The notes beneath the pieces were generated by a model, which saw only the letters and a program-made list of their open reading frames with translations, did not search any database and was not told the origin of the DNA. The translations under genes were made by a program, and so were the position numbers. Positions 41,875-45,005 of a stretch of 64,000 bases of DNA are shown in pieces. The first letter of the stretch is position 1. Each line of letters starts with the position of its first letter. The DNA is from Escherichia coli. GTDB lineage: Bacteria > Pseudomonadota > Gammaproteobacteria > Enterobacterales > Enterobacteriaceae. Where the stretch lies: the NCBI RefSeq assembly GCF_013315695.1, contig NZ_CP054353.1; one strand, given 5' to 3'.

Positions 41875-41883
41875 CACAAAGCG
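41875..41883. repeat. IS1 target-site duplication, left copy (CACAAAGCG)
   Basis: Identical 9-mer directly abuts both ends of the IS1 element. Confidence 0.85.
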
Positions 41884-41898
41884 GGTAATGACTCCAAC

Positions 41899-42402
41899 TT
41901 ATTGATAGTGTTTTATGTTCAGATAATGCCCGATGACTTTGTCATGCAGCTCCACCGATTTTGAGAACGACAGCGACTTCCGTCCCAGCCGTGCCAGGTG
42001 CTGCCTCAGATTCAGGTTATGCCGCTCAATTCGCTGCGTATATCGCTTGCTGATTACGTGCAGCTTTCCCTTCAGGCGGGATTCATACAGCGGCCAGCCA
42101 TCCGTCATCCATATCACCACGTCAAAGGGTGACAGCAGGCTCATAAGACGCCCCAGCGTCGCCATAGTGCGTTCACCGAATACGTGCGCAACAACCGTCT
42201 TCCGGAGCCTGTCATACGCGTAAAACAGCCAGCGCTGGCGCGATTTAGCCCCGACATAGCCCCACTGTTCGTCCATTTCCGCGCAGACGATGACGTCACT
42301 GCCCGGCTGTATGCGCGAGGTTACCGACTGCGGCCTGAGTTTTTTAAGTGACGTAAAATCGTGTTGAGGCCAACGCCCATAATGCGGGCTGTTGCCCGGC
42401 AT
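41899..42402 (-). CDS. insB: IS1 InsB (transposase C-terminal frame, expressed as InsAB' by -1 frameshift)
   Basis: 167-aa ORF matching IS1 InsB (…[21 protein letters not shown]…). Confidence 0.93.
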
Positions 42403-42596
42403 CCAACGCCATTCATGGCCATATCAATGATTTTCTGGTGCGTACCGGGTTGAGAAGCGGTGTAAGTGAACTGCAGTTGCCATGTTTTACGGCAGTGAGA
42501 GCAGAGATAGCGCTGATGTCCGGCGGTGCTTTTGCCGTTACGCACCACCCCGTCAGTAGCTGAACAGGAGGGACAGCTGATAGAAACAGAAGCCAC
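42321..42596 (-). CDS. insA: IS1 InsA (transposition inhibitor / N-terminal transposase frame)
   Basis: 91-aa [26 protein letters not shown]…; the A6C slippery run lies in the insA/insB overlap. Confidence 0.93.
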
Positions 42597-42646
42597 TGGA
42601 GCACCTCAAAAACACCATCATACACTAAATCAGTAAGTTGGCAGCA

Positions 42647-42970
42647 TCACCCACAAAGCGTATAATTTAATAAGCGTCCTAAACCACTGACGGTTTGTGA
42701 TAACGCTTCTTCTACTGCGCCCACCGAGCCATAAATCACCAGCGCGCCGCTAAAACGGTCGAGAAAACCGATATGCACATCGGCGGCTTTCAACGCTAAA
42801 TCACCGGCGATCATCGCCGTTTCTCCGGGAGTTAGCGTCATAATGCCAATTGCGCCCGCATCCGGAACGCCGATTTTCTTCGCCAGTTCCTCGCCGGGAT
42901 GCGCGATGAGATGCGCCAGTGTGACCTGTTTACCGGGCACAAATTCCTGAATGATGCGTTCTTTATCCAT
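42647..42970 (-). CDS. eutS: Microcompartment shell protein EutS with C-terminus rewritten by the IS1 insertion
   Basis: Product from ATG at 42970 ([21 protein letters not shown]…, permuted BMC domain); reading frame enters the IS1 inverted repeat and stops at 42647-42649. Confidence 0.88.
42652..42660. repeat. IS1 target-site duplication, right copy (CACAAAGCG)
   Basis: Identical 9-mer directly abuts both ends of the IS1 element. Confidence 0.85.
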
Positions 42971-43335
42971 GAGTCGCCGCCTGTGAAAAACTTTCGTGTA
43001 TCGTGACAATTTTTCGTCAGAGTAAATAACAAAATTCGGCAAGCGCGTTTAAAAGGTGAGGTAGATCACGAACAATGGGGAAAATACTTTATGCAAAGAA
43101 AATCACATACATCACATGAATACAAACAGGAGTCGATAAGTTTTATTTATCATATGTTACCCACCCCATTTTTAATGGTTCTTCGCATAACCCTATGTAG
43201 CATTTATAATAATTATCAGAATACATATCCCATGAACTGTTGTATTCTGAAAATATTATTATACTCACCCCATTTAAGGTACAACATAAACGATGAGTTT
43301 ATTCAGGGCATAAAAGAAATGGATGGATACCTGTA
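42971..43335. promoter_or_regulatory. Divergent AT-rich control region: eut operon promoter (upstream of eutS) and promoter of the glycosyltransferase gene
   Basis: 365-bp visibly AT-rich intergenic region between divergent eutS and the GT gene; the main eut promoter is known to lie upstream of eutS; individual sites not resolved. Confidence 0.4.
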
Positions 43336-44406
43336 ATGAAAATTCACTACCTTGTCACCACTCTCGAAACGGGAGGCGCTGAATTTGCGATTCCTGATAT
43401 TGTGACTACTCTACAAGATCTTGGTCATGAGGTGAAAATTTATGTATGTGAACCCCGAGATATGGGCGCGGCACCGCGTCTGAAAGCGGCCGGTTTATCC
43501 TGGTGTTTATTATCAAATCGGCGGCGTTCTGTTCCAGTGCTTGTCGGTGCTTATCTGGCAAAAATCATTTACGACAAACCCGATCTCATCTGGACTTCGT
43601 TAAGTTGGGGGACGCGTATTGGACAATGGGGCGGCCGACTTATGGGCATTCCGGTTATCAGTTTTAAACATAGCGCCAGCGTAAAACCAGCAACCTGGCG
43701 TATGCGCAGCATGTCACGTTTATGGATTGGCGATTCTGCAACCGTAACTCAATACCTGCATGAAACCATGCGGATCCCGAAGCAACAAGTGATGTGCTGG
43801 CCTTTTTTTCAGGCTAATCCGCAAGCTGCTCAAGCGAAAAAGTGGGACGGGGTATCAGTTTTACAATTAGGCACCGTTGGTCGCCTGCATGAAGTTAAAA
43901 ATTACGCAGGATTAATTACTGCACTCGCTTCGTTTGTCGATAAAAACCCGCAATTGCGCTCGCGAATCCGACTAACCCTTCTCGGTGAGGGAGCCGAACA
44001 AGAGGTTTTGAAAAAGACCATAACACAACACGCCATGGAGGATGTAGTTTGTTTAGCGGGGTTTTCTGCGGATATCGAAAATTTTCTTGCCGGATTACAT
44101 GTCTATATCCAAACTTCCCGCTACGAAGGGATGTGCCTCGCCGCACACGAAGCCATGAATGCAGGGCTTGCGATCATTACGCCCCCTGTAGGTGAACTTA
44201 AAGAATCGGTAATTGATGGTCATACCGGCTATATACTTAATGGCGAACTAACTCCAGCACTGGAGGAAGTACTTAACCGTATTTTCAATGAACCCACAGA
44301 ATTACAACACTATGGGCAAAATGCGCGTCAGTATGTATTACAGAAATTCAGCCATGAAAATTTTGTCCAGTCTGCAATCAACATTGTTAATAGACTTATT
44401 CACTGA
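43336..44406 (+). CDS. Glycosyltransferase, GT-B fold, family-4-like (retaining), orphan accessory gene
   Basis: 356-aa ORF; N-terminal Gly-rich motif (TLETGGAEFAIPDIVTTLQDLGHEV) and C-terminal EX7E motif (YEGMCLAAHEAMNAGLAIITPPVGE) typical of GT4 enzymes; lower G+C than neighbours. Confidence 0.75.
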   Translation: MKIHYLVTTLETGGAEFAIPDIVTTLQDLGHEVKIYVCEPRDMGAAPRLKAAGLSWCLLSNRRRSVPVLVGAYLAKIIYDKPDLIWTSLSWGTRIGQWGGRLMGIPVISFKHSASVKPATWRMRSMSRLWIGDSATVTQYLHETMRIPKQQVMCWPFFQANPQAAQAKKWDGVSVLQLGTVGRLHEVKNYAGLITALASFVDKNPQLRSRIRLTLLGEGAEQEVLKKTITQHAMEDVVCLAGFSADIENFLAGLHVYIQTSRYEGMCLAAHEAMNAGLAIITPPVGELKESVIDGHTGYILNGELTPALEEVLNRIFNEPTELQHYGQNARQYVLQKFSHENFVQSAINIVNRLIH

Positions 44407-44409
44407 ATA

Positions 44410-44445
44410 AGGCAGTAAAAAGGCATTTTTTGGTACTGCCTTTTC
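44410..44445 (+). terminator. Terminator-like hairpin after the glycosyltransferase gene
   Basis: GGCAGTA…TACTGCC stem with inner A5/T5 pairing, followed by TTTTC. Confidence 0.4.
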
Positions 44446-44954
44446 ACCGAATACTATGGTTATCGTACTTGTCGTGGCGATGGGAAAAGTCGTTACAGTT
44501 TTCATTCCCTTGCATAGCCGTGACGCCCCCTTTTCACACACAAAGAAAATGGTGGATGTTTTATACTCCTCCACCACCAAAGGCAGTCAAGATGGATAAG
44601 TTAATGCTCGCCCATGCCCCCAATTTATGGGCCATGGAAAAACGTCTTGCAAACAGCTGTGTACGGGAATAATAGCAGTGCGGGTATGAGCAAGACATTA
44701 TTTTATCATGACGGGCAAAATTGCAGCCGGACCTAGGGCGGTGCATTGCAGATGCTGAAACTGGACCCGCTATGTTTATTATCTCCAGAATTTAATGCGT
44801 CTGGAAGTACCTACAACTGCTGCGCCTTTTATTGATGGCATGCATACGCTTTCTGGTGTTGGCGACGTTACATTCATGATGCCTGGCTACAACTTAAGGG
44901 CTCGCCTCAGCAATTCTGAGTGGATGTACAGCGGCGTATACAGAAGTGGGTCAG

Positions 44955-44990
44955 CAAAACCGCTTACCCCGAATAAACAGGGTAAGCGTG
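44955..44990 (-). terminator. Terminator-like hairpin downstream of maeB
   Basis: Minus strand reads CGCTTACCC-tgtttattc-GGGTAAGCG followed by GTTTTGCTG. Confidence 0.45.
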
Positions 44991-45005
44991 ATTTAAAGGA
45001 ATGAA

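Follow-up and report, generated by a model that had tools for sequence, protein, structure and literature searches.

The open reading frame at positions 43336–44406 (plus strand) of the Escherichia coli window, the whole 64,000-nucleotide stretch of DNA analysed here, encodes a soluble or peripheral glycosyltransferase with a GT-B fold and of the CAZy GT4 type, which belongs to an uncharacterised clade of proteobacterial enzymes, and it lies almost certainly in an accessory islet next to a dead partner gene. The enzyme type is recognisable and already annotated, and the gene is an ordinary accessory gene with nothing mechanistically unexpected about it. As a whole, the best explanation (origin in a cassette, decay of the partner, continued constraint on the glycosyltransferase and a role in an envelope glycan that is inferred) seems to us to have an even chance of being right, and its parts differ in strength.

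The frame is intact from its ATG start (1,071 nt, 356 amino acids), and its product is identical to WP_001571749.1, labelled in RefSeq as “glycosyltransferase family 4 protein” in the annotation of E. coli MSB1_4I (NZ_LR898874), a strain with 100% identity to the window across the islet region. An earlier reading of the DNA made from its letters alone (the sequence-only reading) had recognised a GT4-type enzyme of the GT-B fold by two motifs, and this assignment is borne out by Pfam, by an AlphaFold model and by the conservation of the motif columns. The C-terminal domain matches Glycos_transf_1 (PF00534, 9.9e-27) and Glyco_trans_1_4 (PF13692, 6.3e-20), and the N-terminal domain matches Glyco_transf_4 (PF13439, 2.1e-7) and Glyco_trans_4_4 (PF13579, 3.8e-5). 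The motif TLETGGAEF occupies residues 9–17, and EGMCLAAHE forms the pair E264-X7-E272; in an alignment of 29 family members G13, H271 and E272 are invariant and G14, A15 and E264 are conserved in at least 90%, and the Arg/Lys pair R183/K188 (GRLHEVK) is likewise invariant or at least 90% conserved among the 29 homologues. The AlphaFold model built on this 29-sequence alignment (pLDDT 94.1, pTM 0.91) has the two-Rossmann GT-B fold, and its best Foldseek matches in the PDB are BA1558, BshA, PglA, MshA, HepE and SdgB, all of them GT4 (probability 1.00 against GT4 crystal structures, TM 0.75–0.85, about 0.8, identity 13–20%). Sucrose-phosphate synthase is also among the closest structures, beside BshA and MshA.

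With the CAZy GT4 enzymes BshA, MshA, PglA, HepE, WaaG and PimA, the protein shares the two Rossmann-like domains, the N-terminal Gly-rich loop, the R/K phosphate-binding pair (GRLHxVK), the EX7E motif, the combination of Glycos_transf_1 and Glyco_transf_4 and a TM-score of about 0.8. It differs from them in its identity of only 13–20% to solved members, in forming its own clade and in lying under every NCBIfam equivalog cut-off. The best NCBIfam match, TIGR03088 of the PEP-CTERM/XrtA system, reaches 120 of the 409 bits required and covers residues 129–351 only; the BshA model gives 63.1 bits (cut-off 273.7) and the MshA model 41.6 bits (cut-off 462.5), and the likeness to these GT4 enzymes of thiol biosynthesis is one of structure only. 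The clade itself is discrete, as the E values in the list of homologues fall from 3.5e-52 to 1.4e-13 with nothing in between. A weak match to the Pfam family GT4-conflict (PF20706, E = 3.3e-5, 23.5 bits, residues 142–279), which is listed for many of the homologues too, might indicate an enzyme of a biological-conflict system of the anti-phage or toxin type. However, this match underlies much stronger generic GT4 matches, no PADLOC model is matched by the glycosyltransferase or its partner, PHROGs yields a generic glycosyltransferase match only, no defence-type neighbours occur in 80 loci (the best 80 of 245 relatives), and there is neither a phage copy nor a close plasmid copy, so that we consider a conflict function highly improbable.

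In the K-12 reference (its derivative DH5alpha) eutS and maeB are neighbours separated by a gene-free gap of 292 bp, in agreement with the sequence-only reading. Alignment with K-12 and other E. coli places the borders of the islet at about 43070 and 44957: on the left, strong K-12 homology extends to 43069 and a weak homology is gone by about 43130; on the right, K-12 homology returns at the maeB terminator at about 44957. This intrinsic terminator, a hairpin found by a terminator scan at 44961–44988 on the minus strand, is common to K-12 and, in alignments to K-12 and to ST648, forms the right edge of the islet. From these borders, the islet measures about 1.83–1.89 kb and stands in place of about 145 bp of the K-12 eutS-maeB spacer. 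Thus the idea of an inserted islet holds for the eutS-maeB junction, but the event was not a clean insertion. Islet DNA was found in 90 of 5,426 complete E. coli genomes (1.7%), once in each and always on the chromosome; it is absent from K-12 and about 98% of the complete genomes, and it is essentially restricted to a few E. coli lineages. The sampled genomes without it have a uniform empty site of about 906 bp. The gene is therefore accessory rather than core.

The composition of the islet is also atypical. Its GC content is 44.2%, and that of the glycosyltransferase gene is 46.2% (GC3 40.9%), in comparison with 54.1% for maeB (GC3 60.3%) and 53.1% for the whole window; together with the AT-rich leader (31.6% GC) and the orientation divergent from eutS, these values agree with what had been noticed from the letters. 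This composition is consistent with a horizontal origin, as the sequence-only reading had suggested, and the accessory distribution points the same way; no mobility signature (integrase, tRNA, IS boundary, flanking direct or inverted repeats) was found at the islet. A phage vehicle was rejected, the sole phage match being 23% identical, and so was a plasmid vehicle, since no plasmid match exceeds 44% identity and the plasmids in question belong to Acetobacter and sphingomonads. Another Escherichia species was rejected as the source: species-representative genomes yielded 245 relatives, and the best 80 of these include none from such a species; the nearest, at 66%, is in Serratia sp. M24T3, followed at 65% by those in Pluralibacter gergoviae and Shimwellia pseudoproteus. 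Like other small E. coli genomic islets, this one occupies one fixed core-gene junction, has low GC and GC3 and an AT-rich leader and occurs in about 1.7% of genomes; it differs from them in the replacement of about 145 bp, in the missing mobility signature and in having two deep, recombining alleles.

The sequence-only reading had regarded the gene as an orphan without partner genes, which does not hold. In 84 of the 90 islet-bearing genomes, represented by ST648, the islet contains two genes, the glycosyltransferase gene and an intact partner gene. The ST648-type allele is 88.5% identical to the window at the nucleotide level, and the match ends directly after the stop codon of the glycosyltransferase gene, where the partner (WP_022645960, 300 aa) starts 13 nt downstream in ST648. 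The window holds a remnant of this gene instead, a frameshifted and deleted pseudogene at 44436–44957 (plus strand) that derives from a GINT1_N or GH130-like beta-propeller protein; no intact GINT1_N gene adjoins the glycosyltransferase gene there. The remnant aligns with the 3′ two-thirds of ST648 gene 2 at 79.5% nucleotide identity over 570 columns, and tblastn finds the partner residues 130–181 and 179–300 in different reading frames. About 345 nt of ST648 gene 2 (its nt 1–167 and 198–378) are without counterpart, and the alignment to ST648 gene 2 shows further indels of 3, 2, 18, 8 and 1 nt as well as in-frame stops. The orphan state of the glycosyltransferase gene is thus the result of partner decay. 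The islet has the partner-less form in six E. coli genomes, namely GF131 and five others that differ from the window by no more than 1%. A 69-aa ORF at 44795–45004, annotated in strain AF14 as the hypothetical protein WP_001330583.1, is a reading frame of the partner pseudogene, and therefore that annotation is likely wrong. In isolate 624 (NZ_OW967003, locus L090, 2801–3498) an IS1 has independently interrupted an ST648-type partner, and the glycosyltransferase WP_022645959.1 is intact there.

The intact partner matches Pfam GINT1_N (PF24793, 4.3e-35) with a faint GH43 signal, and its RefSeq name follows the GINT1_N family; it matches no family in NCBIfam. It is predicted to be a cytoplasmic five-bladed beta-propeller, with no signal peptide or transmembrane segment detected, and its best structural matches are cytoplasmic GH130 mannoside phosphorylases. 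Its conserved residues include D46, D64, R68, E92, D146, R201, H263 and D275. The closest known systems for the decayed partner are the beta-mannoside phosphorylases and transferases of GH130 and GT108 (Teth514_1788, Uhgb_MS and Leishmania 2b4w), which it resembles by fold only, at about 14% identity, so that it is not a GH130 member. The domain PF24793 is the N-terminal domain of the plant enzyme GINT1 (glucosamine inositolphosphorylceramide transferase 1). We take the bacterial partner to be a stand-alone GINT1_N domain, presumably without the separate catalytic transferase domain of plant GINT1; unlike the plant protein, it is paired with a separate GT4 enzyme. The glycosyltransferase gene entered E. 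coli within a two-gene cassette (GT4 and propeller) that replaced about 145 bp of the eutS-maeB spacer.

Comparison of the two islet alleles gives an indication of their age and of selection. Between the window and ST648, the glycosyltransferase gene has a dS of 0.311, a dN of 0.045 and a dN/dS of 0.145, the latter being an average over the time before and after the loss of the partner. The flanking maeB gene has a dS of only 0.089 in the same comparison, that is, the islet alleles are about 3.5 times deeper despite sharing their junctions. Such depth points to a polymorphism of long standing, or to import from a relative that was not sampled, and not to recent divergence inside E. coli; it would fit one ancient insertion followed by transfer among lineages via flanking homology. 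Moreover, the islet of GF131 (locus L004, 2501–4367) is a recombinant, which resembles ST648 in its leader and in roughly the first 800 nt of the glycosyltransferase gene and matches the window exactly at the 3′ end of this gene and in the tail of the pseudogene; homologous recombination thus exchanges sequence between the two alleles. For the same reason, GF131 was rejected as an independent comparison with the window for selection since the loss of the partner.

The islet might also be regarded as an unneeded cassette, in which the glycosyltransferase gene is a decaying and functionless relic that is intact by chance or owing to the recency of the loss. The pseudogene in the window and the independent IS1 disruption of the partner in isolate 624 speak for such a relic, as do the rarity of the islet (1.7% of genomes, few lineages), the AT-rich leader, with which silencing would be likely, and a slight excess of derived changes on the window branch: 15 of the polarised amino-acid changes are derived in the window and 9 in ST648, with 7 ambiguous, an excess which is not significant in a relative-rate test. 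The changes derived in the window include T283P, beside the PVGE motif, and a mild relaxation on this branch would be compatible with these counts. However, divergence in the leader (76.6% identity) and in the remnant (79.5%) has proceeded at about the synonymous rate, and the remnant has accumulated many indels and stops, whereas the 1,071-nt frame of the same age has none and its dN/dS is 0.145. All family-invariant residues are kept in the window protein, and the gene often occurs without an adjacent partner in other species. We therefore consider a relic quite improbable. Judging from the allele comparison, the glycosyltransferase is probably still functional without its partner, which fits the many species in which the gene stands alone.

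The gene is separated from eutS (42647–42970, minus strand) by a spacer of 365 bp, of which the AT-rich leader at 43070–43335 (31.6% GC, read on the plus strand) is the left end of the islet; a leader of this composition may be silenced. A consensus scan gives a candidate sigma-70 promoter TTCGCA-17-TATAAT at 43182–43210 (plus strand), with 10 of 12 matches and 126 nt upstream of the start codon, which is a pattern match only; shuffled sequence has more such sites than the leader region. Directly 3′ of the candidate −10 box lies an inverted repeat, CAGAATACA-N15-TGTATTCTG (43213–43253, without assigned strand), which is identical in the ST648 allele even though the two leaders are 23% divergent; it was not found 5′ of the orthologues in other genera. 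It is a possible operator or 5′-UTR hairpin. Directly 3′ of the stop codon, a terminator-like hairpin with a short U tract is found at 44409–44446 (plus strand; RNA fold −15.8 kcal/mol, z = −3.1, none of 200 shuffles equally stable). The two-gene allele lacks such a hairpin, and its gene 2 begins 13 nt after the stop. A search of the leader and the remnant against Rfam returned no family at E ≤ 1. An 81-aa ORF at 43091–43336, overlapping the start codon of the glycosyltransferase gene (TAATG), was rejected as a gene, since it is not conserved, all three frames of the ST648 allele being interrupted by stops.

On the other side of the spacer, a complete 768-bp IS1A (41884–42651) is inserted in the last codons of eutS, flanked by a 9-bp target duplication CACAAAGCG at 41875–41883 and 42652–42660. 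It alters the end of EutS from ...LCEMTKS to ...LCG* and is probably polar on ethanolamine utilisation, because it stands between eutS and the remaining eut operon, eutP included. This IS1A is missing from AF14, which has the same islet allele, and from K-12.

In other Enterobacterales the glycosyltransferase gene and the partner occur as a pair at unrelated chromosomal sites, for example, between sufA and a TetR-family gene in Shimwellia and between a cation-efflux gene and nadA in Rouxiella; a Halomonadaceae strain likewise has them side by side at an unrelated site, and they are also adjacent in Pluralibacter, Rosenbergiella, Carnimonas and several alphaproteobacteria. The neighbourhoods were surveyed by clustering the neighbouring ORFs of 80 relatives, the best of 245 identified in species-representative genomes. 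The partner directly adjoins the glycosyltransferase gene in 23 of these 80 loci and is not adjacent in 57; the two genes are co-directional in gammaproteobacteria and convergent in Sphingobium, Sphingomonas, Gluconacetobacter and Commensalibacter. Recurrent neighbours among the same best 80 of 245 include TagF-like Glyphos_transf proteins (18 loci), a Wzx-like flippase (13), LptF (12), LptG (9), nucleotidyltransferase-like (10) and lipid-kinase-like (10) proteins and a metallophosphoesterase (9); a sugar-phosphate phosphatase or a solute transporter is not among these recurrent neighbours. A Sphingomonas MAG, for instance, has GT4, GINT1_N, Wzx-like, TagF-like and second GT4 genes in one cluster (locus L063, 3981–9671), and Gluconacetobacter asukensis has LptF, LptG, a membrane protein, a nucleotidyltransferase-like protein, GT4 and GINT1_N (locus L066, 1654–8939); another envelope-type cluster with a member of this family is found in Acetobacter pasteurianus (locus L026, 446–6070). 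The alphaproteobacterial clusters (flippase, TagF-like, LptF/LptG, nucleotidyltransferase-like, lipid-kinase-like, GINT1_N) look like an uncharacterised envelope-glycan locus. These envelope-gene neighbours accompany only relatives with 35–47% identity; none was seen in Enterobacterales, in which only the propeller gene is a conserved neighbour and the cassette has neither a flippase nor an initiating transferase. The view of the sequence-only reading that the context does not allow the substrate to be inferred needs amending to this extent, in that distant relatives give a hint of function.

The hosts of the family are strikingly enriched for associates of insects, nectar and sugar (Rosenbergiella, Bombella, Parasaccharibacter, Commensalibacter, Saccharibacter, Formicincola, Acetobacter and Zymomonas), and one family sequence has been deposited under the name of an ant, Lasius niger. 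The pattern gives a hint of gene exchange inside such niches. Literature searches for the locus, for ST648 with glycosyltransferase and ethanolamine, for PF24793 and for bacterial GINT1 yielded nothing relevant; the GINT1 papers found concern plant GINT1 only, and none of them treats the GINT1_N (PF24793) domain.

The GT4 enzymes are retaining transferases that use NDP-sugars as donors. By analogy, the present enzyme would take a sugar from an NDP-sugar and form an alpha linkage by a retaining reaction, in which E264 and E272 of the EX7E motif together with R183 and K188 would hold the sugar, ribose and diphosphate of the donor. The protein shows no signal peptide and no transmembrane or hydrophobic segment. 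Its N-terminal domain, on the acceptor side, is strongly basic (net charge +10, pI 9.9) and its C-terminal domain is acidic, a polarity that is found in all 29 aligned members (median net charge of the N-domain +7). A basic N-terminal and an acidic C-terminal domain are typical of peripheral-membrane GT-B enzymes that act on anionic lipid-linked acceptors. The basic domain could thus dock on the inner face of the cytoplasmic membrane, where a single sugar would be attached to a lipid-linked intermediate of an envelope glycan; a resident pathway (that of LPS core, of ECA, or of the repeat unit of an O antigen or capsule) would supply this intermediate, and the module of Enterobacterales would rely on that pathway. 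In the full cassette, the propeller might add or trim a second sugar, and the window strain would keep the glycosyltransferase step only. An envelope glycan is favoured as acceptor because of the basic N-domain and the Wzx, TagF and Lpt neighbourhoods of the distant relatives. That the acceptor is such a lipid-linked glycan, which receives one alpha-linked sugar at the cytoplasmic face of the inner membrane, seems to us a real prospect, judged a little short of even.

In the main rival to the envelope-glycan reading, the product of the enzyme would be a soluble glycoside or oligosaccharide of the cytoplasm, for instance a storage sugar or a compatible solute, and the propeller would originally have taken part in its synthesis, either as a phosphorylase or as a second transferase. 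Neither of the two proteins has a signal peptide or transmembrane segment, the cassette of Enterobacterales is without a flippase or initiating transferase, and the closest structures of the glycosyltransferase include BshA, MshA and sucrose-phosphate synthase, just as those of the partner are the cytoplasmic GH130 mannoside phosphorylases; in addition, sugar-rich niches are home to many of the hosts (Rosenbergiella, Bombella, Acetobacter, Zymomonas, Commensalibacter). The nearest structures, at 13–20% identity, span BshA and MshA with soluble acceptors and PglA with a lipid-linked one, which counts against the envelope-glycan reading. On the other hand, members of the family lie beside genes for Wzx-like flippase, TagF-like and LptFG proteins in alpha- and gammaproteobacteria, the conserved basic N-domain suits membrane or anionic lipid acceptors, and the recurrent neighbours show neither a sugar-phosphate phosphatase nor a solute transporter. 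We therefore regard a soluble glycoside as unlikely.

Returning to the envelope-glycan reading, the GT4 and GINT1_N pair might be an uncharacterised, horizontally mobile module of two enzymes that decorates a resident envelope glycan (LPS core, ECA, O or K units), a proposal which we make tentatively and hold to be rather doubtful. The same proposal, with the same doubt, would imply a novel side branch, for example, an alpha-hexose followed by a beta-linked sugar, for which the module would need no flippase of its own.

For the window itself, the result is mostly corrective: the gene encodes an annotated GT4 enzyme, and its orphan state comes from the decay of the partner. The intact cassette marks the ST648-type lineage, and we take ST648 to be a pandemic ExPEC lineage. 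If active, the glycosyltransferase would modify either the E. coli surface or a cytoplasmic glycoside in a lineage-specific way, and in a few clinical lineages it could thereby alter serotyping, susceptibility to phage or complement, or stress tolerance. The pairing of GT4 with GINT1_N is conserved across Proteobacteria and seems not to have been characterised by anyone, which makes E. coli a tractable test host. If the pair does act as a module of two enzymes, the window strain would represent a form of it naturally reduced to one enzyme and ST648 would have the intact form, and this would give a first function to the bacterial relatives of the N-terminal domain of plant GINT1.
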